A DNA stretch of 64,000 nt, taken from Candidatus Omnitrophota bacterium (GTDB taxonomy: Bacteria; Omnitrophota; Gorgyraeia; Duberdicusellales; 4484-171). Positions 2,978 through 55,140 of the stretch are shown piece by piece. The position numbers were made by a program, and so were the translations under genes. The stretch is taken from NCBI GenBank assembly GCA_021735655.1, contig JAIPGM010000001.1, forward strand, positions 277,262-341,261. Reading direction: 5' to 3'. The notes under the pieces are model-generated. The model worked only from the letters and a program-made list of their open reading frames with translations. It was not told the origin of the DNA and ran no database searches. Numbering within the stretch: the first letter of the stretch is position 1; every line of letters starts with the position of its first letter.

Positions 2978-3721
2978 ATGAGCAAGATAATAGCAATTAT
3001 CCCTACTTACAATGAGGCTGGGAATATTTTACCTTTGTTAGGTAAACTTTTTTCTCTGGCAAGTAATATTTCTGTTTTGATAGTGGATGATAGCTCGCCT
3101 GACGGGACATCTCAAATAGTAATAAAGTTGCAAAGAGAATATCCTAAGCTACATTTAATAACTCGGGCATGTCGTCAAGGCTTGGGCAGTGCTTATATAG
3201 AGGGGTTTAAATATGCCCTAAAGAAAGGTTACGATATAATAATTCAAATGGACGCAGATTTATCTCACGCTCCGCGTGAGGTGTTAAAGATGATCGCTTT
3301 AATTGAGAGGTATGATCTAGTTATTGGCAGCAGATATATTAAGGGTGGAGGAGTCTACGATTGGTCATATCCGAGAGTTTTGTTGAGCCGCTGGGCAAAT
3401 ATTTTTTCAAAAATATTGCTTAGGACGCAGGTCTATGACTTAACCAGCGGATTCAAATGCTTGCGAAAGAATGTATTGGAAGAAATAGATTTCCAAACTA
3501 TATCTTCCAGAGGGTATGCTTTCCAGATTGAAATGGTTTTTAGAGCTTTAAGGAAAGGCTTTAAGGTAATTGAGCATCCAATTATCTTTCAAGGAAGAAG
3601 ATATGATAAGTCTAAAATGTCTTTGCCGATTGTCATAGAGGCTTTTATTAGAGTTTTGTGTTTGTTTTTTAATCGATTCTCCAGGGGGCGCAATACAGGA
3701 TCAAATATTATCAATAAATAA
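2978..3721 (+). CDS. GT2 polyprenyl-phosphate mannosyl/glycosyl transferase (Dpm1-like)
   Basis: IIPTYNE..VLIVDDSSPDGT..QMDADLSH motifs of Dpm1/GtrB-type GT2. Confidence 0.75.
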   Translation: MSKIIAIIPTYNEAGNILPLLGKLFSLASNISVLIVDDSSPDGTSQIVIKLQREYPKLHLITRACRQGLGSAYIEGFKYALKKGYDIIIQMDADLSHAPREVLKMIALIERYDLVIGSRYIKGGGVYDWSYPRVLLSRWANIFSKILLRTQVYDLTSGFKCLRKNVLEEIDFQTISSRGYAFQIEMVFRALRKGFKVIEHPIIFQGRRYDKSKMSLPIVIEAFIRVLCLFFNRFSRGRNTGSNIINK

Positions 3722-3872
3722 AGGCCTTTCGACTTAAAGGTTAGGGAAATTTTTTAAGAAATACGATTAAAAAAGTATTTGATTCTATATAGAATATGAT
3801 AAAATTAAGGGATAAAGAAGTGTGTTTTTATATTAGATGCACAATTTACAATGCTAAAGGGAGGTGTCCAAA

Positions 3873-4625
3873 ATGATTAGGACCATGGAAACTTTATGTT
3901 TTGCGGCTTTGATTTTTGCAATAACATTTGCTTTTACTCCATTAGCTTTAGCTTATGATTTAAGTAAGTATTACCCTTTAAATGAAGGTGATAGTTGGGA
4001 GTATTTAACAAGCGGAATAGGCTACGTTGAGGGTGGAGCAGATAAGGCAGAATTTTCCGATATGATTGAAGTAGATAAAATAGAATCAAAAGAATCTATT
4101 TCCGGTAAAAGGACCATGGTAAAGGTTTCGGGAGCCTTAGAGGAAAAAGAATGTTTGGCTGTAGACTCAGAAGGACTAAAACTGTACAAGTTAATAGATG
4201 GTCCAGGTGGTTATGATATATTTACCCCGCCGTTCATGCAGTTGGCAAATCTTGCAGTTGGAGAGAGTAAAACTTTCTTAAGCAATGCAATCGGGTATGG
4301 TGATCGCTCAAGTGAAGGAGCCAGACTGAATACAAATACGATAACATTGGAATCAGTGGAAAGAGTAGAAGTTCCCGCAGGATTATTTGATGATTGCCTT
4401 AAATTTACGTCGACGGGTGAAAGAGCCTACGCAGATGGCAATTATGAAAATATTGAGTCTACCGTTTGGCTTGCTTTAGGGGTAGGTGTAGTTAAGGCTG
4501 ATTATATTTATATCGAACATGATTTTTCTTCAGGCGAGGATAGTACTACTACCAACAAGCGAAATTTGGTTTCAGCAAAGGTAAATGGTCAACAAATCGG
4601 AACTCCAAAGGAAAGTCAAGAATAA
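3873..4625 (+). CDS. hypothetical secreted protein (signal peptide, cleavage near ALA-YD)
   Basis: ATG at 3873 preceded by RBS AAGGGAGGTG. The ORF track begins at GTG 3864. Hydrophobic N-terminus. No recognisable family. Confidence 0.4.
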   Translation: MIRTMETLCFAALIFAITFAFTPLALAYDLSKYYPLNEGDSWEYLTSGIGYVEGGADKAEFSDMIEVDKIESKESISGKRTMVKVSGALEEKECLAVDSEGLKLYKLIDGPGGYDIFTPPFMQLANLAVGESKTFLSNAIGYGDRSSEGARLNTNTITLESVERVEVPAGLFDDCLKFTSTGERAYADGNYENIESTVWLALGVGVVKADYIYIEHDFSSGEDSTTTNKRNLVSAKVNGQQIGTPKESQE

Positions 4626-4725
4626 TAAGGCCAGCGTGCAAGTTTTAGCTAATGAAACTTGATAATTTTTTTATTGCAGTTTCATAAATCCTTCTATACG
4701 ATTCAAATTCAATATTACAATTTAT

Positions 4726-4734
4726 GGGGGGGGG
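4726..4734. repeat. G9 homopolymer in the intergenic region upstream of the GT4 gene
   Basis: Direct read: tttatggggggggg ttaatcc. This is the longest G run in the window. It lies ~120 nt upstream of ATG 4856. Confidence 0.9.
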
Positions 4735-4855
4735 TTAATCCGATCAACATGTGAAGTTCCTCATGAATTGCAGTCTTATCAAAATACGCATAAACATAAA
4801 ATACGAATTAATAAAGATGTTAAGCTATATATAGTTGATAGTTGTAGGGCGAAAA

Positions 4856-5959
4856 ATGAAAAAAATTCTGGTTTTTAACGCTGGAGCTTATATCTACGGA
4901 GCAGAAAGAGGGTTAATTAATTTTATTAGAACTTTGTCTGATAAATTTGAAATAACGGTAGTCTTGCCTTCCCAAGGCCCCCTTTCTAAAAAAATCGAAA
5001 AATTAAATGTATCTTTAAAAATATTTCCGATACCGATCCTTAAAATCTCGCTTTCACCGCTATATTATATTTTTTTTCCTTTTCATTTTATTTTTTCCGT
5101 TATTTATTTTAGCATTTATGCAATCCGCAAAGATATTGAAATAATTTGTAGTAATTCTTTACTTTTAGTTTTTCCGGCTATTGTTGCTAAATTTACCAAA
5201 AAAAGACATATCTGGTATTTAAGAGAGTTTCTGCCTTCTAGTTTTTTGAATAAAGCTCTAGGGGCATTCATTATCAGATTTTCAAACCAAATAATATGTC
5301 AATCTCAAGCTATTAGGGAAGCCTTGCTTGGCAAAGAAAGGGGCATTATTATTTATGAACCTTTAAATGCTACGGACTATAAAATCTACAAATCAGATCT
5401 TGCAAGAAGTGAGCTAAATATCCCTATAAAATCAACGGTTATTTCAATAATTTCTCGAGTGCATCCTTCTAAGGGACAGTATGAATTTATAGTTGATATT
5501 AAAAGGACATTAAAGAAAAATCCCAACATCCTTTTGGTTATCGCCGGTGATATATCGCCGAACAATTTAAGAAATCGTTTATATAAAGCAAAAATAGAAA
5601 AATTGATAGAGGGGGATACTCTAAAAAATGTAGTCCTTTTAGGTTTTAGAGATGATGTTGATAGGATACTTTCTTTAAGCAATATTTGCGTTTTTCCTTT
5701 TAAAAGAAAAGAACCGTTTGGAATTTCTGTAGCTGAAAGTTTAACTTTTGGTAAAATAACTTTTTTTCCTCAGGTTGGAGGTCTAAAAGAAGTACGTGAT
5801 ATCTTTGGTCGGGGAAACGATTTTAGTATAGATAGGATTTGTGAGATAGCCTCAAACTTTGAACCAGCACGAGTAGAAAAGCTCCAAGAATTATATATCC
5901 CTGAAGAGCTTTCTATCGCGACATACAAAAATAAACTTATTCCTATTTTTGAAAATTAA
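4856..5959 (+). CDS. glycosyltransferase, GT4/GT1-fold family
   Basis: MKKILVFNAGAYIYGAERG N-terminus and a C-terminal Rossmann-like domain. Likely start ATG 4856 inside track ORF 4835..5959. Confidence 0.55.
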   Translation: MKKILVFNAGAYIYGAERGLINFIRTLSDKFEITVVLPSQGPLSKKIEKLNVSLKIFPIPILKISLSPLYYIFFPFHFIFSVIYFSIYAIRKDIEIICSNSLLLVFPAIVAKFTKKRHIWYLREFLPSSFLNKALGAFIIRFSNQIICQSQAIREALLGKERGIIIYEPLNATDYKIYKSDLARSELNIPIKSTVISIISRVHPSKGQYEFIVDIKRTLKKNPNILLVIAGDISPNNLRNRLYKAKIEKLIEGDTLKNVVLLGFRDDVDRILSLSNICVFPFKRKEPFGISVAESLTFGKITFFPQVGGLKEVRDIFGRGNDFSIDRICEIASNFEPARVEKLQELYIPEELSIATYKNKLIPIFEN

Positions 5960-7087
5960 ATGAAGCCGTTTAAAAAAAAGATACTTTTTATTATTACCCA
6001 CCTTGAATTGGGAGGAGCTCAGGGTCAGTTGCTTTTGCTTGTAAAAAATCTAGATAGAAACAAGTACTCACTGTATTTATCTTCCGGAGACCAGGGCTAT
6101 CTCAAGGAAGAATTTTTAAAACTCCCATATTTACATATAAAATTAATTCCGGAGTTGATAAGAAATATTAATCCTTTCTACGATTTTATTGCTTTTTTGA
6201 AATTATATTTCTATATCAAAAAAAATAAATTCGATATAGTTCATACTAATTCCCCTAAAGCTTCTATTTTGGGAAGATGGGCGGCTTATCTGGCAGGCGT
6301 AAAAGGTATTATTTACACTGTACACGGTTGGCCTTTTCATAAATTCATGAATCCGATAGTGCATTATTTATATATTTTAATTGAAAAAGTGACCGCCAAG
6401 ATTACAAAAAAGATAATAGTTGTTTCTGAAGCAGACCTTAGAACAGGAATAGAGAATGAAATCGCCGATAAAAATAGAATTTTTCTTGTTCATTATGGCA
6501 TAGAAATAGATAAGTTTAATAAGGTGTATGATCAAAGAAGCGAAATTTTTCCTGGTAATACTGTTTTTACAATCTCTTCGTTTAAGCCTCAAAAGGATAT
6601 TTTTAATTTTTTGAAATTAGCAAAAATGCTTCTTGATAGAAATCCTCAGTTGAATTTTATCATAGCCGGAGACGGACCTTTGCGTAAGAGAGTGGAGAAA
6701 AGGATAGAGTTACTAGGGCTAAGCGGTAAGGTGCACCTAAAGGGCTGGTCTGACGATGTTTCTCTTTTATTTAAAATGGCATCGTTGTTTGTGCTCACTT
6801 CTTTATGGGAAGGTCTACCAGTGTCTTTGATTGAAGCGGTTGTATCAGGAGTTCCGGTGGTAGTCACTAATACCGGTGGCATTTTCGATATAGTGAAAAG
6901 CGGCAATCAGGGGGTGGTCGTCAATCCAACCAATATTTTAGAAATAGAGAGCGCTTGTTGGGAAATATTGAAAAACTATGATAATTGGAGTACAATTGTC
7001 AGGAATGGCCGGAAAAAGTTAAATTTAAAATATTGGTCTTTTGCTAGAACGCTGAGAGAAATAGAAAATATTTATGCTACTATTTAA
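5960..7087 (+). CDS. glycosyltransferase family 4
   Basis: ITHLELGGAQ N-terminal motif; EGLPVSLIEAVVSGVPVV (E-X7-E region) typical of GT4. Confidence 0.7.
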   Translation: MKPFKKKILFIITHLELGGAQGQLLLLVKNLDRNKYSLYLSSGDQGYLKEEFLKLPYLHIKLIPELIRNINPFYDFIAFLKLYFYIKKNKFDIVHTNSPKASILGRWAAYLAGVKGIIYTVHGWPFHKFMNPIVHYLYILIEKVTAKITKKIIVVSEADLRTGIENEIADKNRIFLVHYGIEIDKFNKVYDQRSEIFPGNTVFTISSFKPQKDIFNFLKLAKMLLDRNPQLNFIIAGDGPLRKRVEKRIELLGLSGKVHLKGWSDDVSLLFKMASLFVLTSLWEGLPVSLIEAVVSGVPVVVTNTGGIFDIVKSGNQGVVVNPTNILEIESACWEILKNYDNWSTIVRNGRKKLNLKYWSFARTLREIENIYATI

Positions 7088-8078
7088 GTTGATAGAGCTG
7101 TTAGCGCTTTTCTTTTTTGCTTTTACGCTCAGTATATTTTTTCTTGCTATTTCAAGAAAGCTATCTTTAAAACACAATCTTTTTATCAGAGATAGAAATA
7201 TACCTTATATTGGGGGGGTTAGTTTTTCTCTGGTTTTTATCATTTGCCTTATTTTATTTTCTTTTATTAAAGCTAAAGTTGTGCCTTTTCAGTTTATTTG
7301 GATAATTACCTTTTCATTTATATTGTTGTTGGTTGAGTGGATAGACGATTTGAAGGATTTAAAGCTTAAGGCCAGAGTCCTGATTCAAATCATTTTTGTA
7401 TTTTTATTTCTCCTTTACGGAAAGCAAATCCAGATTTATTTTTTACCAAACTGGGCTAATTATCTTATTTCTTTTTTATGGATAGTAGGGATAACCAATG
7501 CTTTTAATCATCTTGATGTCGCTGATGGGCTATGTGCAGGTATAGCTTTGATTGTTAGCTTGGCATGTTTAGTGATAGCTTTAAAGACTGGAAGCTTTTT
7601 ATTGTTTGTTTTTGTTGCTCTTTTTGGGGTTCTTTTGGCTTTTCTTTTGTTTAATTTCCCTCCGGCTAAAATATTCATGGGTAATGCTGGAAGTCACTTT
7701 TTAGGCTTCTTGTTTGCAACCTTAAGCATTTATGGAGACTATGCCAGCTTCGATAATATTTTAGCCATTTTTTTGCCCCTGTTGGTTCTAGGATTGCCGA
7801 TTGTTGACACATTTTATCTCATTGTGGTGCGTGCTAGTAAGAAAATCTCTCCTTTACGGAAAAGTGATGATCACATCATTTTACGTTATTTGTTAAAGGG
7901 CTATTCTTACAAGCGGTCTTTGGCAAGTATTTATTTTTTAACTGCGGTTTGGTGTTTAAGTGCAATTCTTTTATTGAATGGTCCAGGCCTATGGTGTTTA
8001 ATTTTTCTGATTATTGCCTTTTTGGGAACAATTCTTATGATCATTAAGGCTAATGTCAGTAAATTTTCTAGTTGTTAG
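7074..8078 (+). CDS. polyprenyl-phosphate HexNAc-1-phosphate transferase (WecA/MraY family)
   Basis: Multi-TM protein with NAFNHLDVADGL and other MraY/WecA-family motifs. Confidence 0.7.
   Translation: MLLFKLIELLALFFFAFTLSIFFLAISRKLSLKHNLFIRDRNIPYIGGVSFSLVFIICLILFSFIKAKVVPFQFIWIITFSFILLLVEWIDDLKDLKLKARVLIQIIFVFLFLLYGKQIQIYFLPNWANYLISFLWIVGITNAFNHLDVADGLCAGIALIVSLACLVIALKTGSFLLFVFVALFGVLLAFLLFNFPPAKIFMGNAGSHFLGFLFATLSIYGDYASFDNILAIFLPLLVLGLPIVDTFYLIVVRASKKISPLRKSDDHIILRYLLKGYSYKRSLASIYFLTAVWCLSAILLLNGPGLWCLIFLIIAFLGTILMIIKANVSKFSSC
7212..7218. repeat. G7 homopolymer within the WecA-like gene (codes IGGV)
   Basis: Direct read of ggggggg. Confidence 0.9.
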
Positions 8079-13250: not shown

Positions 13251-13911
13251 GTTGATAGAATTAAAATCTGTAAACAAAACTTATAACAACGGTATGCCTT
13301 TTGCGGCTCTTTGTGATATATCTTTATCAATAGCTAAACAAGACTATTTGGCAATAACCGGTCCTTCGGGAGCCGGAAAATCAACCTTGCTTCATATTAT
13401 CGGCGGCCTTGAACTTCCGACTAGCGGTGAGGTATTTTTTCAAGAAAAGCAAATATCTAAGCTCAACGATCGCGATCTTTGCCTTTGGCGTAATAAAACC
13501 GTGGGTTTTGTTTTTCAGTTTTATCATTTAATCGAAGAGCTGAATGTATTGGAAAATGTAGCAATTGCCGTATTTGGTCAGATGCAAAAATACTCTTTCA
13601 AAAAAGCTAAGGAGTTGTTAAAATATTTAGGACTTGAAAAAAGAGTTGAGGCTTTTCCATCGCAACTTAGCGGTGGCGAAAAACAAAGGGTAGCTATTGC
13701 TCGAGCTTTGGTCAATGACCCTCAGGTGCTTTTTTGTGACGAACCGACTGGTAATCTTGATAAGGAGTCACAAGAGAGAGTGGTTAGTTTGCTTTCGAAT
13801 TTAAATAGGAGCAAGAAAAAAACAATAGTTTTAGTGACCCATAATCAGGAGCTAGCTAGACAGGCAAAAAAAGTTTTAGTTATTGAAGACGGAAAAATAA
13901 ACGGAGGGTGA
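13228..13911 (+). CDS. lolD: lipoprotein-release ABC ATPase
   Basis: Walker A GPSGAGKST; LSGGEKQRVAIARAL signature. Confidence 0.8.
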   Translation: MRRLDMNELIELKSVNKTYNNGMPFAALCDISLSIAKQDYLAITGPSGAGKSTLLHIIGGLELPTSGEVFFQEKQISKLNDRDLCLWRNKTVGFVFQFYHLIEELNVLENVAIAVFGQMQKYSFKKAKELLKYLGLEKRVEAFPSQLSGGEKQRVAIARALVNDPQVLFCDEPTGNLDKESQERVVSLLSNLNRSKKKTIVLVTHNQELARQAKKVLVIEDGKINGG

Positions 13912-13913
13912 GC

Positions 13914-14789
13914 ATGAAAGTTTATCTTAACCGAGAGTTAGTTGAGAAAAAAGACGCAAAGGTTTCAGTATTTGATCATGGATATCTTTACGGTGATGGA
14001 GTTTTTGAGGGAATAAGAACCTACGACTGTTTGGTTTTTAAACTGAAAGAGCATGTCGACCGATTGTATGAGTCTGCTCATTCAATTATGCTAAATATCT
14101 CTTTCACTAAAAAACAGATGGTGGAAGCAATTATAAAAACGCTTAAGGCGAATAAACTTAAAGATGGTTATATCAGGGTAGTTGTTTCCCGTGGTGAAGG
14201 CGATTTAGGTCTTGATCCGCGAAAATGTAAGGGCAATGAAACATTAGTTATTATTACTGATAAGATTACTCTTTATCCTAAACAGCTATATCAAAAAGGG
14301 ATGGAGATAATAACTGTTCCTACGGTACGTAATATTCCGGAAGCTTTAAATCCACAGATTAAGTCGCTTAACTATTTGAATAATATCTTAGCCAAGATTG
14401 AAGCGATCAACTCCGGTTATCAAGAGGCTTTGATGCTTGATCATCTCGGCTATGTAGCTGAATGTACTGGTGACAATATATTTATGGTTAAGAAGGGTAA
14501 GCTCTATACGCCACCTCAATGTATGGGTACTCTTCGGGGGATCACCCGCGATGCAGTACTTGATATTGCTAAGAAGTTAAAACTTTCTACCAATGAGCAC
14601 GTTTTAACCCGGCATGAACTCTATCTATCCGATGAATGTTTTTTAACTGGAACTGCAGCCGAAATCGTTCCGGTAGTAAAGGTAGACGGTAGGAGGATCG
14701 GCACTGGCATTCCGGGTAAATTTACTAAAAAAATAATGCAGGAGTTTAGGAATTTAACTAAAACTTCAGGTGTAAGGTATAAGTTGTAG
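13914..14789 (+). CDS. ilvE: branched-chain amino acid aminotransferase (class IV)
   Basis: VFDHGYLYGDGVFEGIR N-terminal motif. ATG 13914 (track ORF starts at GTG 13908). Confidence 0.8.
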   Translation: MKVYLNRELVEKKDAKVSVFDHGYLYGDGVFEGIRTYDCLVFKLKEHVDRLYESAHSIMLNISFTKKQMVEAIIKTLKANKLKDGYIRVVVSRGEGDLGLDPRKCKGNETLVIITDKITLYPKQLYQKGMEIITVPTVRNIPEALNPQIKSLNYLNNILAKIEAINSGYQEALMLDHLGYVAECTGDNIFMVKKGKLYTPPQCMGTLRGITRDAVLDIAKKLKLSTNEHVLTRHELYLSDECFLTGTAAEIVPVVKVDGRRIGTGIPGKFTKKIMQEFRNLTKTSGVRYKL

Positions 14790-46484: not shown

Positions 46485-46513
46485 TTGACTAAAAAACTAG
46501 TGATTAGTATAAT
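46485..46513 (+). promoter_or_regulatory. consensus promoter TTGACT-N17-TATAAT, 9 nt upstream of the thioesterase ATG (leaderless arrangement)
   Basis: TTGACT at 46485-46490, TATAAT at 46508-46513, ATG 46523. No SD. Confidence 0.55.
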
Positions 46514-47259: not shown

Positions 47260-47364
47260 AAAGCCTAAGTAATTTCAGGCCTATTTCTAAATTATATTGA
47301 CTAGGTTTAACTTTTAGTTTATGATAGGCTTTGTTCTTATAATATATAGGTATGGGAGGTTTAA

Positions 47365-48372
47365 ATGATTAAGGCTGCAGTATTAGGAGCAACCGGTTTT
47401 ACCGGCGAAAAATTGATTGAAATTCTACTTAATCACCCTAAGGTGCAGATTGGCTATATCTGCGCAAAGGTTGAAAAAATTCAGAAATTTTCAACTATTT
47501 TCCCTCATTTTAAAAACAAATTGGATATGGTTTGTGCCAATCCTGATCTTGAGCAGGCGGCCAAACTGGCTGAGGTTATATTTTTAGCTTTGCCGCATAA
47601 GTTATCTTATACGGTGGCGCCTTTTTTCTTAGAGAAAGGAAAGCTAGTAGTAGATTTGTCAGCTGACTACAGACTAAAAGATCCGAAGGTTTATGAACAA
47701 TTTTATAAGGCTAAACATAAGGATTTAAAAAATTTAAAGAACTCGGTATATGGGCTTCCGGAATATTATAAAGAGAAGATAAAAAAGGCGAAACTTATCG
47801 CTAACCCAGGCTGTTATCCTACGGTCTCAACTTTAAGTCTAGCTCCTTTGTTGAAAGAAGGCGTAGTTAAGAATGTAATTATTGATGCTAAAAGTGGGAT
47901 TAGCGGTGCCGGAAGAAATCCGGATTTAACTTATCGCTATGATCATTTAAGCGGTAATCTGTTTGGCTATAAACTTTTTGATCATCAGCATTTACCGGAG
48001 ATAGAACAGGTGCTTTCTAATATTAGTAAAAAGAAAGTTTCACTTAGATTCACTCCGCACGTTATTCCGGCTGAGAGAGGAATTTTGGCGACTATCTATG
48101 CTGATTTAGTCAAACCGGTCAAAGAAAATACGGTTAACAGTATTTATGCTCAGTACTACAAGAAAGCCCCTTTCGTGAGGTTGTTTAAGCAGAAGCTTCC
48201 TCAATTAAAAGATGTTGTCGGTAGTAATTTTTGTGATATTGGTTTCCAGATTAAAGATAAAAAGATAGTCATCATTGGAACGATTGATAATTTAATAAAA
48301 GGTGCCGCCGGCCAGGCAGTGCAAAATATGAATATAGCTTTAGGCTGGGATGAAAAACTGGGTTTATTATGA
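47365..48372 (+). CDS. argC: N-acetyl-gamma-glutamyl-phosphate reductase
   Basis: GATGFTG N-terminus and active-site GCYPT. Confidence 0.9.
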   Translation: MIKAAVLGATGFTGEKLIEILLNHPKVQIGYICAKVEKIQKFSTIFPHFKNKLDMVCANPDLEQAAKLAEVIFLALPHKLSYTVAPFFLEKGKLVVDLSADYRLKDPKVYEQFYKAKHKDLKNLKNSVYGLPEYYKEKIKKAKLIANPGCYPTVSTLSLAPLLKEGVVKNVIIDAKSGISGAGRNPDLTYRYDHLSGNLFGYKLFDHQHLPEIEQVLSNISKKKVSLRFTPHVIPAERGILATIYADLVKPVKENTVNSIYAQYYKKAPFVRLFKQKLPQLKDVVGSNFCDIGFQIKDKKIVIIGTIDNLIKGAAGQAVQNMNIALGWDEKLGLL

Positions 48373-49457
48373 AATTACCACAAGGTTTTCTTTCTTCCGG
48401 AATCAATTGCGGGTTAAAAAGAAAAAAGTTGGATCTTGGACTTATTTATGTTGAGGATTTTGCTAAGGTAGCCGGATTTTTTACAACGAATGCTAATCTT
48501 TCTTATTCGGTCGTAGCGGCTAAGAAAAATATTAAAAATCCGATTAAGGCGGTTTTAGTCAATAGCGGAAATGCGAACTGTTATTCTCATAAGTCTGGTT
48601 TAAAAGATACCGAAGATATAGTTTTAAAGTTAGCTAAGAAGCTAGGAGTAAAACAATCTAGCATCTTGATTGCTTCTACTGGTATTATCGGTAAAAAATT
48701 ACCGAAGCAAAAAATCATATCGGGATTAGAGCCTTTAATAAAGAACTTGGGAAAGCAGTCTAAGAATTTTTCAGAGAGCATTCTTACTACGGATGCCTTT
48801 GTTAAAACTGCCGGCAAACAGATTCTTAAAGGTAAGGCCAGCGTGGTTGGCTTTGCCAAGGGCGCTGGGATGATTTGTCCTAATATGGCTACAATGTTAG
48901 CTTTTGTGCTTACTGATTGTGATTTACCGCAGGCTGTTTTTAAAAAAATTGCTAAAGAAGCAGTTGAAGAAAGTTTTAATTCAATAAGCGTTGATGGTTG
49001 TATGAGTACTAATGATACCTTAATATGTCTTTCGAGCGGAAAGGTTCCTTTAAAGAACAAAGCTCAAATAGCTGATTTTTCTAAGAGTTTAAAGGTTGTA
49101 TGTTTAGAATTAGCCAAGCTAATAGTCAAAGATGCCGAAGGGGCAAGTAAATTTATTCATATTCGGATAAAGGGAGCAAAAACTAAACTTGAGGCAAAGA
49201 AGTGCGGTTTAGCTTTAGCAAATTCCAATCTTTTTAAATGTGCTATTTATGGTGAGAATGCAAATTGGGGAAGGATTATCCAAAGTTTGGGGCAAGTCGG
49301 GGTTAAGTTGGGAGAAAATATAGGTATTAAAACAAATTCCCTTAAGAAGAGAAATATTGATATAGCGATTGACCTAAAGAGAGGTAGGTCGTCAGCAAGC
49401 ATTTACACCTCGGATCTAACCCCGCAGTATGTTAAGATAAACGCTGAATATAGTTAG
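48369..49457 (+). CDS. argJ: glutamate N-acetyltransferase / ornithine acetyltransferase
   Basis: Autoproteolysis site PNMATMLAF (ATML). Confidence 0.8.
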   Translation: MKLPQGFLSSGINCGLKRKKLDLGLIYVEDFAKVAGFFTTNANLSYSVVAAKKNIKNPIKAVLVNSGNANCYSHKSGLKDTEDIVLKLAKKLGVKQSSILIASTGIIGKKLPKQKIISGLEPLIKNLGKQSKNFSESILTTDAFVKTAGKQILKGKASVVGFAKGAGMICPNMATMLAFVLTDCDLPQAVFKKIAKEAVEESFNSISVDGCMSTNDTLICLSSGKVPLKNKAQIADFSKSLKVVCLELAKLIVKDAEGASKFIHIRIKGAKTKLEAKKCGLALANSNLFKCAIYGENANWGRIIQSLGQVGVKLGENIGIKTNSLKKRNIDIAIDLKRGRSSASIYTSDLTPQYVKINAEYS

Positions 49458-51516: not shown

Positions 51517-52452
51517 ATGAATCATTTTATTGCCCTTAAATATTTTTCTCAAGGAGAGATTGAAAAGCTTATTGATTTAGCGATAAAGATAAAAAGCAAT
51601 CGAAGTCTTTATCGAGATTCACTGAAGGGAAAATCAATAGGGCTTATTTTTGAAAAACCGTCCTTGAGGACTAAGACTGCTTTTTATATTGGGGCGGTAC
51701 AGTTAGGCGCTGAAGCTATTTACTATACCCCTCAAGAGATAAAAATCGGAGAAAGAGAATCGGTTGGTGATATTGCCGGAACTTTTTCAGTGTATTTAGA
51801 CGCGGTAGTTTTGCGTACCTTTTCGCATGATACAATTTTAGAGTTTGCAAAACTTTCAAAAATACCGATAGTTAATGCTTTAAGTGATTTTTTTCATCCT
51901 TCGCAAGTATTAGCCGATATTCTTACAATCAAGGAAGCTAAGGGCGATATAAAAAAGTTAAAAATCGTCTATGCCGGTGACGGTAATAATGTTTGCAACT
52001 CTTTAATTCATGCATTTTCTATTTTAGGTGGCAATTTGACTCTAAGTATTCCTAAAGGCTATGGGTATGGGCTTAAGAATAAAGTTTTAGCTGAGGCTAA
52101 GGCTCAGGCAGAGATTTCCGGGGCAAAGATATCTTTTAATCCTTCACTTAGTGAAGCAGCCAAAGGCGCGGATGTTCTATACACCGATGTTTGGACTTCA
52201 ATGGGCAAGGAGTCGGAAAGAAAGAAAAGAAAAAAAGCTTTTAAAAACTTTCAGATAAATGATAAAATCTTAAAAGCTGCTAAGAGTGATTGTATCGTGA
52301 TGCATTGTCTTCCGGCTCACAGAGGGGAGGAGATTACCGATTCGGTAATTGACAGTAAAAATTCGGCAGTCTTCAAGCAGGCTGAGAATCGTCTCCATGC
52401 GGCAAAGGCAATTTTAGTTTATCTTTTAAAAGGTAATAAGGCGGATAAATAA
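51517..52452 (+). CDS. argF: ornithine carbamoyltransferase
   Basis: STRT-like SLRTKT and HCLP motifs. ATG 51517 after the argD stop. Confidence 0.85.
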   Translation: MNHFIALKYFSQGEIEKLIDLAIKIKSNRSLYRDSLKGKSIGLIFEKPSLRTKTAFYIGAVQLGAEAIYYTPQEIKIGERESVGDIAGTFSVYLDAVVLRTFSHDTILEFAKLSKIPIVNALSDFFHPSQVLADILTIKEAKGDIKKLKIVYAGDGNNVCNSLIHAFSILGGNLTLSIPKGYGYGLKNKVLAEAKAQAEISGAKISFNPSLSEAAKGADVLYTDVWTSMGKESERKKRKKAFKNFQINDKILKAAKSDCIVMHCLPAHRGEEITDSVIDSKNSAVFKQAENRLHAAKAILVYLLKGNKADK

Positions 52453-53624
52453 TGAAAAAAGTAGTTTTAGCTTATTCGGGAGGATTAGATACTTCTTGTT
52501 GTGTGGCTTGGCTTAGAGATAAAGGCTACAAGGTGGTAGCTTTTTCTGCTAATTTAGGCAGTGAGTTCTCACCTAAAGAGCTTAAAAGCATGGCTAAGGC
52601 CAGCGGAATATCTAAAATCTATATAAAAGATTTACAAAAAGAATTCGCTGATCAGTATATACTTCCGGCACTTAAGGCCGGGGCAGTTTACCAGAATAAA
52701 TATCTTCTGGCGACAGCTCTTGGACGTCCTTTAATTGCTAAATATTTAGTTGAAGTAGCCAAAAAGGAAAAAGCAACTTATGTTGCTCATGGCTGTACGG
52801 CTAAGGGTAATGACCAGGTAAGGTTTGAGATAGCAGTGAAAGCTTTGAATCCTAGACTAAAGGTTATTGCTCCCTTGAGAGAGTGGCACTTAACCTCTAG
52901 AGATTCAGAGATTAAATATGCAAAAAGTAAAAAGTTGCCGATTAAATCAACCAAGAAGAAGATTTACAGCATTGATAAAAATATTTGGGGAGTAAGCATT
53001 GAAGCCGGCAGCCTCGAAAATTTGGACAACGAGCCTCCAGAAGATGCTTTTATTTTAACTCAAAGTTTAAAAAAGGCTCCCTCTAGTCCTCAATATTTAG
53101 ATATTGAGTTTTCTAAAGGAAAGCCAGTTAAGCTAAACGGGAAATCTACGGAGTTGGTGGCGCTTATAAACAAGCTTAATAAAATCGGTGGCAAACACTC
53201 AATCGGCAGGACTGATGTTATTGAGGACAGGGTTGTCGGTATAAAGTCGAGAGAGGTTTATGAGGCTCCGGCAGCTTGGATATTGCACTTAGCTCATAAG
53301 GAGCTTGAAAGTTTAGTCTTAGACAGAGAGACTCTTTCACAAAAAGCGCTTTTAGCCTTGAAATATGCCCAACTGGCCTATCAAGGTTTGTGGTTTTCTA
53401 AGCTGAAGATCAGCCTTGATGCGGCGATTTTAGAAACTCAAAGCAAAGTAAGCGGAAAGATAAGATTGAAACTATACAAAGGAAATATAATTATCGCTAA
53501 AAGAAGTTCGCCGCACTCTTTATATAAGGAAGAGCTGGCAACTTACGGTGAAAAAGATAAATTTAACCGAGATTGGGCCGAAGGGTTTATTAAAATCTGG
53601 GGAATGCCCTTTGTTGGTAAATAG
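52452..53624 (+). CDS. argG: argininosuccinate synthase
   Basis: AYSGGLDTS PP-loop. Confidence 0.9.
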   Translation: MKKVVLAYSGGLDTSCCVAWLRDKGYKVVAFSANLGSEFSPKELKSMAKASGISKIYIKDLQKEFADQYILPALKAGAVYQNKYLLATALGRPLIAKYLVEVAKKEKATYVAHGCTAKGNDQVRFEIAVKALNPRLKVIAPLREWHLTSRDSEIKYAKSKKLPIKSTKKKIYSIDKNIWGVSIEAGSLENLDNEPPEDAFILTQSLKKAPSSPQYLDIEFSKGKPVKLNGKSTELVALINKLNKIGGKHSIGRTDVIEDRVVGIKSREVYEAPAAWILHLAHKELESLVLDRETLSQKALLALKYAQLAYQGLWFSKLKISLDAAILETQSKVSGKIRLKLYKGNIIIAKRSSPHSLYKEELATYGEKDKFNRDWAEGFIKIWGMPFVGK

Positions 53625-53627
53625 AAT

Positions 53628-53690
53628 ATATCCGCCTCGCTAGATATACGGTAAATTTCCTCCGTAAATTTACCGTAACTCGGCGGATAT
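53628..53690. repeat. long nested inverted repeat (hairpin) in the argG-argH gap
   Basis: Outer arms ATATCCGCC (53628-53636) and GGCGGATAT (53682-53690). Inner perfect 11-bp arms ACGGTAAATTT (53648-53658) and AAATTTACCGT (53666-53676) around a 7-nt loop. Confidence 0.8.
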
Positions 53691-53745
53691 CAATTCAACT
53701 AAGCATTTTTCGAAGAAAAATGCAAGTTTCATTGAGGAGGTAAAC

Positions 53746-55140
53746 ATGGCTGATAAATTATGGGGTGGAAGATTTAGGAAGGAAGTAAATAAAGATTTTT
53801 TTGAATTTCAGAAATCAATACAATATGATTATAAAATCGTTGAATATGATATCTATCATTCAATTATTCACGTTACCGCCCTGGAAGAGGCCGGGCTTTT
53901 AAGTAAAGACGATGCCATTAAATTAACTTCTGTTTTAAGCGATATTTTTCAAGAGGTTAGAGAAGGAAGATTCAAGTTTAACCCTAATTCTGAAGATATC
54001 CATACTGATATTCAAAATAGAGTCTCTAAAAGGTTAGGGAAGCTGGCTCAGAAGTTACATACTCTACGTTCAAGAAACGATCAAGTTGTTTTTGATGAGA
54101 AGTGGTATTGCTATCGGGAAGGGGTCTATACTTTAAGTCTGATTAATGTAGTTTTGGCTAATCTGAATCATCTCGGCAACACTTACCGAGATACGCTTAT
54201 TCCCGGCTATACTCATACTCAGCGAGCTCAGGTAGTCTCATTTATTAACTATACCGGAGCTTTCTTTTGTATGTTTGAAAGGGATTTTGAGAGATTAGAT
54301 GCCTTCGTAAAGAAGTCAGAGATCTATATCGGTTCCGGTGCTTTGGCCGGAAGTGCTATTCCTAAGGCAGCCTATAGTGAGGCTTTAAAAAAGTTTTTGG
54401 AAAGTTCAAAAGCACAGTTAAAACATTCTAAGTCTTACACGGTTAAAAATTCTTTAGATAATGTTGCCAGCCGTGATTTTGTAATTGAGTTTTTGAGCAT
54501 TCTATCAATATTACAGATGCATTTGTCACGCATGGCTGAAGATTTTATCCTTTATTCGACCAAAGAGTTTGGATTTCTTGATTTACCGGAGGAGTTCTGC
54601 ACCGGTTCATCACTTATGCCGCATAAGAAAAACCCTGATTTTCTAGAGTTAGTCAGGGGAAATACCGGAAAAATATATGGTAATATAGTTTCAGTTTTAA
54701 CTATGATGAAGGGGCTACCGTTAACTTATAATCGGGATATGCAGCTAGATAAAGAGCCGCTCTTCTCATCTACCGAGGTAGTAGAACAAGAGCTAAAAAT
54801 AGTTGCCGGGCTAATTGCTGGTATAAAGTTGAATAAAAAAAGAATTCTTGAAGCCCTTGAAGATGAGGAGCTTTATGCTACAGAATTAGTAGAGTTTTTG
54901 GTTCATGCCGGGGTTGCTTTCTCGGAAGCCCATACTACGATTGGAAAGCTGATAATTTATTCCGAAGATAACAAAATTAAGATTAAAGATATGTCGGATA
55001 AAATTTTAAAAAAGTTTAATTCGTCGTTGAATCATAAAAACGTAAATCAAATAATGAGCGCCGAGCATGCGGTGGCGTCAAAAAAATCGTTACCGAAACA
55101 GAAGCATACTACTTCCAAAAAACCTTCTAAGAAGAAGTAG
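53746..55140 (+). CDS. argH: argininosuccinate lyase
   Basis: Fumarase/ASL family: GSSLMPHKKNPD signature. Confidence 0.9.
   Translation: MADKLWGGRFRKEVNKDFFEFQKSIQYDYKIVEYDIYHSIIHVTALEEAGLLSKDDAIKLTSVLSDIFQEVREGRFKFNPNSEDIHTDIQNRVSKRLGKLAQKLHTLRSRNDQVVFDEKWYCYREGVYTLSLINVVLANLNHLGNTYRDTLIPGYTHTQRAQVVSFINYTGAFFCMFERDFERLDAFVKKSEIYIGSGALAGSAIPKAAYSEALKKFLESSKAQLKHSKSYTVKNSLDNVASRDFVIEFLSILSILQMHLSRMAEDFILYSTKEFGFLDLPEEFCTGSSLMPHKKNPDFLELVRGNTGKIYGNIVSVLTMMKGLPLTYNRDMQLDKEPLFSSTEVVEQELKIVAGLIAGIKLNKKRILEALEDEELYATELVEFLVHAGVAFSEAHTTIGKLIIYSEDNKIKIKDMSDKILKKFNSSLNHKNVNQIMSAEHAVASKKSLPKQKHTTSKKPSKKK

Follow-up and report, generated by a model that had tools for sequence, protein, structure and literature searches.

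Small interspersed structured repeats are represented in bacteria by the ERIC, Correia, BOX, BIME and MIRU elements. The MIRUs of mycobacteria are direct repeats of 46-101 bp that lack a strongly covarying fold of two hairpins and have been proposed to contain small ORFs (open reading frames) with a coupling role, and in the intercistronic early and late RNase III sites of phage T7, a lower and an upper stem are separated by an asymmetric internal loop and closed by a loop, within ~60 nt. For ERIC in the enterobacteria and Correia elements in Neisseria, cleavage by RNase E or RNase III and changed expression of neighboring genes have been reported (background of PMC3049150); for BOX, stimulation of downstream expression by boxA and boxC has been reported, and most copies (70 in Table 1) have at least one coding sequence downstream of them, small repeats being over-represented between convergent genes (PMC3049150). 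Here, another repeat of this kind is described from a 64,000-nt stretch of the Candidatus Omnitrophota contig JAIPGM010000001.1 (hereafter the window), in which a unit with two hairpins fills the 121-nt spacer between argG and argH and closes in the argH Shine-Dalgarno sequence.

Like ERIC/IRU and Correia elements, the Omnitrophota element is an imperfect palindromic unit of the ~100-150-nt class, multi-copy, located in presumably transcribed intergenic regions including those of operons, and predicted to form long mRNA hairpins; unlike them, it comprises two different hairpins in a fixed 5′-3′ order, not one palindrome with terminal inverted repeats, is found essentially in sense orientation only, and ends in the downstream Shine-Dalgarno sequence at a fixed distance from the start codon. 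The TA-type target duplication was not found for the Omnitrophota unit, and the phylum differs as well. With BOX of Streptococcus pneumoniae (boxA-boxB(n)-boxC), it shares a stable predicted RNA structure, a position near gene starts, and modules that are absent, swapped or in tandem, which in the Omnitrophota family take the form of short and long versions of hairpin 1, swapped modules of the P5 helix and tandem arrays; however, there is no sequence relationship, BOX has terminal inverted repeats, and the Omnitrophota family is tied to Shine-Dalgarno/start sites. MIRUs are resembled in the intercistronic operon spacers, the single orientation, the one to few head-to-tail copies and the contact with flanking stop and start signals, but the Omnitrophota unit is an RNA-like module with a structure of its own, and the argG reading frame closes ahead of it. 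The T7 RNase III sites likewise recur before many genes of one genome, with conserved loop nucleotides and just 5′ of the next ribosome-binding site, although this likeness is one of shape and position only, the sequences being unrelated and the Omnitrophota element being known from sequence alone. REP/BIME (REPIN) sequences are also extragenic, palindromic, multi-copy and homogeneous within a genome; according to PMC2817692, however, REPs are imperfect palindromes of ~20-40 nt, much shorter than the present unit, usually number >100 copies per genome and alternate in orientation within BIMEs, whereas the Omnitrophota unit spans 85-140 nt, has two unlike hairpins and forms head-to-tail arrays. 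Size and the lack of alternating orientation thus separate it from REPs, and the lack of terminal inverted repeats separates it from miniature inverted-repeat transposable elements (MITEs); it is neither an ARG box nor an intrinsic terminator, nor does it belong to an Rfam family. It is a small interspersed structured repeat in the company of ERIC, Correia, BOX, BIME and MIRU, set apart from all of these by its fixed two-hairpin order, essentially exclusive sense orientation and integral Shine-Dalgarno sequence at a fixed start distance, and also by its bias to core housekeeping genes and its restriction to Omnitrophota-type genomes.

Anatomy of the argG-argH element

The arg genes of the window are arranged in the row argC-J-B-D-F-G-H, followed by lysA and dapF, with argG at 52452-53624 and argH at 53746-55140 (all coordinates are positions in the window, + strand). 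A preliminary description had drawn attention to a nested palindrome at 53628-53690 in the only sizable gap of this cluster, and most of its particulars were borne out: the gap lies between the argG end at 53624 and the argH start at 53746, the genes at the remaining arg junctions overlap or are ≤10 nt apart, the outer 9-bp arms and the 7-nt loop CCTCCGT read as claimed, and no T-run immediately follows. The inner perfect arms are present but measure 12 bp, not 11, and the palindrome, though real, is only hairpin 1 of the 121-nt unit (53625-53745), whose second hairpin and Shine-Dalgarno sequence had been overlooked. The folding-energy check proposed at the same time was also positive: 53625-53695 folds as RNA at -25.2 kcal/mol, against -10.5 ± 2.5 kcal/mol in 200 dinucleotide shuffles (z -5.97), and none of the 200 shuffles folds as well. 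The minimum free energy (MFE) structure of 53620-53750 reaches -37.6 kcal/mol (z -5.07) and leaves the Shine-Dalgarno sequence and the start codon unpaired. By itself, the 12-bp inner palindrome is unexceptional, because five more perfect 12-nt inverted repeats with arms ≤100 nt apart occur in the AT-rich window (G+C ~37%); the proof of non-randomness is the match to a covariance model of the family (R2), which 53625-53745 matches over its full length (positions 1-120 of 120; 126.3 bits, E 3e-30), the window copy being one of the 56 training sequences of R2.

Hairpin 1 is built of two helices separated by an asymmetric internal loop. The outer helix, P1, pairs ATATCCGCC (53628-53636) with GGCGGATAT (53682-53690) over 9 bp, and two-sided changes are seen in the family at 8 of 8 of its pairs. 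The internal loop has TCGCTAGATA on its 5′ side (53637-53646; consensus UcgcuaaAua), where UC.C and the purine-rich positions are kept between genomes, and ACTC on its 3′ side (53678-53681; family consensus acUc). The inner helix, P2, is formed by the perfect arms TACGGTAAATTT (53647-53658) and AAATTTACCGTA (53666-53677), with two-sided changes at 10 of 12 pairs, and is capped by the apical loop CCUCCGU (53659-53665), which includes a UNCG-type UCCG. Hairpin 2 (53690-53735) starts at T53690, which is common to P1 and P3, and consists in the predicted fold of P3 (TCAAT, 53690-53694, with ATTGA, 53731-53735), P4 (AACT, 53697-53700, with AGTT, 53725-53728) and P5 (GCATTTTTC, 53703-53711, with GAAAAATGC, 53715-53723, around the loop GAA), interrupted by TC/TC internal loops; P4 and P5 covary and are also recovered by MAFFT with RNAalifold. 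The argH Shine-Dalgarno sequence GGAGG (53736-53740; family consensus AUUGAGGAGG) adjoins P3, and the argH start codon ATG (53746-53748; TIGR00838, 431 bits) follows 5 nt after it. All 121 nt are identical in an independent Logan assembly of SRR12088349. A small ORF within the window's hairpin 2 (MQVSLRR*) was not kept in the other copies as judged by reading.

Two stable hairpins in the only large gap of the arg cluster might also act as an intrinsic terminator or attenuator, by which transcription of argH would be reduced or gated with respect to argG, and a lenient scan did return 53703-53723 as terminator-like. Hairpin 1, however, has no U-run behind it and is missing from the terminator scan list, the P5 stem is A/U-rich, and the “tail” behind hairpin 2 (AAGUUUCAUUGA) forms part of P4 and P3, with covariation; in addition, the element is found before ribosomal-protein, dnaK and efp genes, which could ill afford constitutive termination. 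With no U-tail present and base pairing in the sequence behind hairpin 2, the attenuator envisaged in the preliminary description is not supported, and termination is a very unlikely role for this element.

A structured-repeat family in Omnitrophota genomes

A covariance model made from 53625-53745 alone (R1) recovered one further locus, L020 (67.8 bits, E 6e-13), and had no other match in 593 kb. The GTDB species-representative genomes were then scanned once with the pattern CAATTCNACTN{14,44}AGTNTCATTGAGG, which returned 72 stretches labeled as Omnitrophota (46), “uncultured Planctomycetia” (19), one “Methanosarcinales” metagenome-assembled genome (MAG; 4) and singletons (3). R1 had 112 matches in these 72 pattern-found loci, with a model match at every Omnitrophota-, “Planctomycetia”- and “Methanosarcinales”-labeled locus, whereas the Caldisericota and Poribacteria stretches had no model match and the Victivallales stretch (L100) gave a weak one of 29.5 bits. 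In total, ~90 copies were recovered in ~24 MAGs, almost only in Omnitrophota-labeled or similar bins. Among the 56 best copies, JAHJHM01 contributed nine, JBDRIY01 eight and CAZSRG01 six, and head-to-tail arrays of two to three copies were found at L119:624-996, L121:3773-4023, L144:4552-4826, L107:111-385, L129:2906-3154 and L116:5326-5708. The unit size varies from 85 to 140 nt, including a short variant with a small hairpin 1. With filters off, R2 found a single copy in the window (53625-53745), and in 525 kb of argG-centered loci its sole match was L020. The preliminary suggestion of a REP-like repeat therefore holds insofar as the element belongs to a dispersed multi-copy family, but not with respect to unit size, orientation pattern or the single copy in the window.

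Covariation was computed on the 56 best copies in an alignment fitted to the model. Canonical pairs occupy 95.7% of the pair cells, against 73.0% in column shuffles and 35-49% with slid partners; two-sided changes occur at 31 of 38 pairs, and doubly changed cells number 440 versus 114, a value reached by none of 500 shuffles. Because that alignment was fitted to the model, the analysis was repeated with MAFFT and RNAalifold on 28 diverse copies, which recovered P1, P3, P4 and P5 and in which 20 of 25 pairs were doubly changed. P3 (TCAAT/ATTGA) is invariant across the family, which is partly forced by the search pattern. Elsewhere, stem sequence differs between copies while pairing persists, loop length ranges from 3 to >50 nt, and the unpaired nucleotides kept between genomes are UC.C...A.A in the 5′ internal loop, acUc in the 3′ internal loop, U.CG in the apical loop and the TC/TC loops. 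In searches with Rfam 15, only tRNA was found in the window at the gathering threshold, only chance-level matches were returned for 53560-53800 in E-value mode, and in 18 copy-bearing loci only tmRNA, tRNAs and a group I intron were detected, none of them overlapping a copy. No account of the element was found in the searchable Omnitrophota/Omnitrophica literature, coverage of which was incomplete, so that this is absence of evidence only; as far as the tools used can tell, the family is apparently undescribed. An integron attC site was also considered and discarded, as the P1 consensus lacks the RYYYAAC/GTTRRRY cores and the neighbors are housekeeping genes.

The copies are closely tied to translation starts. 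Among the pattern-found copies, 65 of 69 carry RGGRG followed 3-10 nt on (mode 6-7) by ATG, GTG or TTG, a start codon being counted if it opens an ORF of at least 40 aa. The copies found only by the covariance model are free of GAGG ascertainment, and 8 of these 18 have the same Shine-Dalgarno/start arrangement, 7 belong to tandem arrays, where they lie upstream of a start-linked final copy, and 3 are neither. Orientation is essentially always sense relative to the downstream gene, and ~40 of 87 copies are intercistronic, with a co-directional ORF ending ≤60 nt upstream. The preliminary description had held that many dispersed copies would make the palindrome a generic repeat; the family is indeed dispersed, but its copies, being linked to translation starts, are not generic. 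Downstream genes confirmed with Pfam encode the ribosomal proteins L21, L9, L35 and S6, ferritin, MotA/ExbB, NifU, BioY, EF-P, class-IV aminotransferase, thioredoxin, hybrid-cluster protein, glutamine synthetase (GlnA), YebC, ACP, GreA, DnaK, PhoU, transaldolase and HU, and those recognized by eye encode RpoA, ClpB, IlvC, CobT, PilT and ParA, as well as pilins and a histidine kinase. Orthologs that carry the element in several genomes are efp, cobT, rpoA, ilvC, hcp, argH, nifU, pilT and motA (proteins 60-90% identical).

This distribution bears on two regulatory explanations. A perfect 12-bp inverted repeat within an arginine biosynthesis cluster would suit a double-stranded DNA operator for the dimeric arginine repressor ArgR/AhrC, as the preliminary description had proposed. 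The ARG-box core has the consensus TGAATWWWWATTCA; allowing ≤2 mismatches, this consensus gave 10 matches versus 14.2 expected, none of them near arg genes, and no match was present at 53625-53745 or upstream of argC. Furthermore, the palindrome sequence is wholly different between copies while pairing is kept across loops of 3 to >50 nt, copies precede unrelated genes (ribosomal-protein genes, dnaK, efp), and the arg clusters of the closest relatives are without the palindrome. The ARG-box scan and the family distribution together exclude the operator for practical purposes, leaving it with next to no probability.

Alternatively, the element might be a leader that responds in cis to a ligand (riboswitch-like) or to a trans-acting factor (a protein or small RNA), with its binding site in the conserved internal loop and apical loop, in which case the downstream set would constitute a post-transcriptional regulon. 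The unpaired loop nucleotides kept between genomes, the tandem copies, as in some tandem riboswitches, a downstream set rich in translation, chaperone and core-metabolism genes, and the Shine-Dalgarno sequence adjoining the structure all fit such a leader. The functions are, however, too mixed for one metabolite (pilins, ParA, histidine kinase, ferritin, BioY), no Rfam family matches, near-identity of stems within a genome is unexpected for independently evolving aptamers, and no conserved alternative fold sequesters the Shine-Dalgarno sequence. Only in the window copy is the loop CCUCC complementary to that sequence (pairing at -9.3 kcal/mol, shuffle fraction 0.02); as a family feature, an anti-Shine-Dalgarno pseudoknot was rejected, the loop-Shine-Dalgarno duplex averaging -3.1 kcal/mol in 37 representatives versus -2.6 kcal/mol in shuffles. 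A dedicated factor- or ligand-responsive leader is accordingly regarded as improbable.

Several copy-bearing loci have features of their own. The “Methanosarcinales archaeon” MAG JAIWAR01 carries the bacterial element on four contigs (L105, L127, L145 and L152), on two of them upstream of bacterial-type genes (YebC in L127, RpoA in L145), and these four are probably mis-binned Omnitrophota contigs; the element could serve as a marker for Omnitrophota contigs and here flags the probable mis-binning. In L132 (PMCS01), copies at 3739-3874, 5141-5305, 6305-6437 and 7007-7137 each precede one of an array of paralogous genes of 137-151 aa whose products start like pilins (MLVRLRKAQSTAEYA...), but no such gene follows a fifth, weak match at 3010-3133; the four copies have P4 as CACAC/GTGT or GCGC/GCGC and GGGGG as the Shine-Dalgarno sequence. 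On the minus strand of L163 (IMGVR_UViG_3300050033_000550), an IMG/VR contig classed as viral, model matches were found at 1995-2099, 2993-3147 and 7912-8004 (56, 28.5 and 18.2 bits), and the two with the highest scores lie just 5′ of ORFs on that strand; either the viral classification is questionable, or a host-type leader is employed by a phage. Another very stable structured spacer (-48.8 kcal/mol), with a 28-nt direct repeat, GAATTGCGTCGGTATTGCCCTTCTGGGC, present twice, lies 5′ of the transaldolase gene at L156:3850-3985 (JALOBR01), where L097 has a family copy; it may be related to the family but diverged, or represent a separate leader family. On the minus strand of L158 (4662-5347; the JAQUOR01 Omnitrophota MAG), an Rfam tmRNA match (4947-5347, 112.9 bits) abuts or overlaps a group I intron match (4662-4959, 56.3 bits), which may mark an intron-associated tmRNA gene.

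Insertion history of the argG-argH junction

By its ArgG, the window belongs to a Candidatus Omnitrophota MAG. Comparison with argG loci gathered from JGI metagenomes and with the closest homologs gave the expectation of conservation between argG and argH a divided answer: the closest relatives are without the element, and L020 (= L147) has the same architecture. In L082 (ArgG 89% identical) and L083-L087 (82-84%), argG and argH overlap by 8 nt (ATGGCTGA or GTGGATAA), in L088-L090 (80%) they are separated by a 28-nt spacer, and in most other loci the spacer is 1-70 nt; the two-hairpin unit was thus not present at the argG-argH junction of the closest relatives (ArgG 80-89% identical). The ArgG identity matrix groups the loci as ((window,L082),(L083,L085)),L088, with L082 as sister of the window. 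Given this grouping and the relatives without the unit, the 121-nt spacer was most simply gained in the window's lineage, by a putative insertion of ~120 nt into a formerly overlapping argG/argH junction at the argH Shine-Dalgarno sequence.

The L082 junction reads CCCTTCATTGGAGGTAATCATGGCTGA, and in an affine-gap alignment the segment without counterpart in L082 falls at 53618-53737 or, in an alternative placement, at 53610-53727 plus GA. The limits of the segment can shift by 8-10 nt, as it has TTYRTTG(A)GG at either end (53610-53617 and 53728-53737), while L082 has one native copy of this motif, TTCATTGGAGG; any target duplication would be GG, GGTAAA or TTYRTTG(A)GG, depending on the placement. 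The argG stop codon TAG (53622-53624) lies within the insert under one of the two equally good placements, and the ArgG C-terminus is MPFVGK* in the window versus MPFIGGNHG* in L082. From this alignment, the insertion appears to have swapped the ArgG tail, supplied a new argG stop and rebuilt the argH Shine-Dalgarno sequence as GAGGAGG. Together, the comparisons show a member of a structured-repeat family, inserted between argG and argH, with the overlap replaced by a spacer that bears the argG stop and the argH Shine-Dalgarno sequence. Annotators should note that such an element alters gene ends, here shortening ArgG and abolishing the argG/argH overlap.

At greater distance, L020 (ArgG 67%, ArgH 72-75% identical) has the same layout in a 148-nt argG-argH spacer with different stems: from the window to L020, CCGCC/GGCGG becomes CCCGAC/GTCGGG, AACT/AGTT becomes GACT/AGTC, ACGGTAAATTT/AAATTTACCGT becomes TGTCAAAATT/AATTTTGACA, and P5 changes from GCATTTTTC/GAAAAATGC to ACGTTTTTT/AAAAAACGT as its loop grows from 3 to 12 nt, with the linkers ATCAATTCRACTA and AAGTYTCATTGAGGAG kept.

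Across the family, hairpin 1 identity is 77% within a MAG versus 41% between MAGs. The copies at L154:3575 and L137:6689, which precede orthologous 61-aa genes, have a common P4/P5 type and each its own genome's hairpin 1, and in the orthologous copies of L149 and L111, P5 has been wholly replaced. In these respects, the element behaves as a modular repeat that is copied or homogenized within genomes. Its ends are an A/T-rich 5′ leader and a 3′ end reading ...CAUUGAGGAG; terminal inverted repeats were not found at the unit ends, and the 9-bp arms bound hairpin 1 alone. In L123, GGAGG stands on both sides of the element relative to the empty ilvE-like site of the window. That site (13858-13914) belongs to the window's own ilvE-like gene, which starts at ~13914; in L123 the element lies between the old GGAGG and the gene. 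Insertion by duplication of a target Shine-Dalgarno sequence would fit L123 but was not supported, as GGAG/GAGG is not enriched in the 5′ flanks (12 of 79, versus 15-16 of 79 in control bins).

RNA- and DNA-level evidence and genomic setting

The reading favored here, with moderate confidence, is a composite one, in which the element is a duplicative, transcribed, Shine-Dalgarno-bearing leader module that presents the argH ribosome-binding site, with hairpin 1 perhaps serving as a processing or stability determinant. The element would be transcribed inside the arg operon mRNA and act in cis, and hairpin 2, a stable helix, would leave GGAGG and AUG unpaired at its foot, so that argH would gain an autonomous, insulated ribosome-binding site uncoupled from argG termination. 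Hairpin 1, as a 20+-bp helix with a conserved asymmetric internal loop, might segment or stabilize the transcript, possibly as a target of a double-strand-specific RNase by analogy with ERIC, Correia and the phage T7 sites, and the family would spread via some copy-paste or gene-conversion process. An mRNA structural element had been among the first proposals for the palindrome, and it is this part, without the attenuator, that has stood, on the sense orientation, the Shine-Dalgarno sequence at the 3′ edge with the start 3-10 nt on, and the UNCG-like loop.

An RNA-level role is favored by sense orientation and fixed start geometry, by the UNCG-like P2 loop, present by reading in ~21 of 34 long copies, by the asymmetry of mismatches, with 63 pyrimidine-pyrimidine versus 4 purine-purine mismatches on the sense strand, and by the openness predicted from the Shine-Dalgarno sequence to the start (0.52 versus 0.44 in control starts of the same loci; Mann-Whitney p 8e-4). 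A number of observations weigh in the other direction. In ~2000 pair cells, the strand test detected no asymmetry between G.U (21) and A.C (19), a result that either carries no information or speaks against a pure RNA-level reading, and the stems are nearly pure Watson-Crick, which is atypical for selection on RNA only and fits a DNA-level palindromic repeat; homogeneity within genomes points to selfish proliferation or gene conversion, not to selection on each copy. The predicted gain in Shine-Dalgarno accessibility is modest, and the 3′ half of the alignment and the Shine-Dalgarno link were partly ascertained by the search pattern (...TCATTGAGG), with only 18 bias-free copies. The label “highly expressed” for the downstream genes is drawn from gene identity, without a background gene-set comparison, and every functional step of the composite reading is likewise deduced. 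Finally, the 64-kb window has a single copy and its nearest relatives manage without the element, and the window copy could be a tolerated recent insertion without benefit.

These points lead to the principal competing explanation, a purely selfish, DNA-level palindromic mobile repeat of MITE/REP-like character, without RNA function and tolerated where it restores a ribosome-binding site, the proximity to start codons then being a matter of insertion bias or survivorship. Besides the near-exclusive Watson-Crick pairing, it would account for copies that are near-identical within a genome and different between genomes, for a sporadic distribution (present in the window and the distant L020, absent from all closer relatives), and for tandem arrays and swapped modules resembling BIME or BOX mosaics; the resemblance of the empty L082 site to the element's own 3′ end hints at homology-guided insertion, and L123 has an old GGAGG directly 5′ of its element. 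Against it, the 121-nt unit shows neither terminal inverted repeats nor a consistent target duplication, and GGAG/GAGG is not enriched in the 5′ flanks. The essentially constant sense orientation and fixed start-codon distance also count against it, as do the UNCG-like loop and strand-asymmetric mismatches, which point to the RNA strand. The element also recurs before the same core housekeeping genes across genomes with proteins only 60-80% identical, with structure-preserving divergence, and this implies that it has been retained for long. A selfish repeat without function is considered unlikely.

Beyond the composite reading, the family may tentatively be viewed as a self-propagating, phylum-specific “plug-in leader” with its own ribosome-binding site, recruited or homing to the starts of many Omnitrophota core genes and perhaps a common cis-target of a trans-acting nuclease or RNA-binding factor. 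If so, it would represent a new class of cis-RNA, one in which the dynamics of a mobile repeat are coupled to global post-transcriptional control. The Omnitrophota are ultra-small bacteria that have not been cultured and are reported to show unusually high activity per cell (PMC10066038), and almost nothing is known of their gene-expression signals; the element could be this lineage's own way of presenting translation starts or of processing operon mRNA or, alternatively, a repeat that colonized exactly these ribosome-binding sites.

Upstream of the row of arg genes, a sigma-70-like site, TTGACT-17-TATGAT (47297-47325; consensus match only), lies just 5′ of argC and is likely the operon promoter, which would place the element within the arg transcript. 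A promoter in or before the element itself was considered and not supported: -10-like A/T hexamers occur upstream in several subfamilies but without consistent -35 or spacing, and the start site would land inside P1. A second near-consensus site, TTGACT-17-TATAAT (46485-46513), precedes a gene for a ybgC-like thioesterase. Within the cluster, ArgJ (48369-49457) has 362 aa versus profile lengths of 400-405 and matches the profile in two stretches; ArgJ of relatives is likewise 360-363 aa, so that the shortening is a lineage trait. Every listed ORF of plausible gene size between 44 and 57 kb lies on the + strand, and the GC skew of the window (1-64000) is positive in all 2-kb bins (0.05-0.26), consistent with one replichore.

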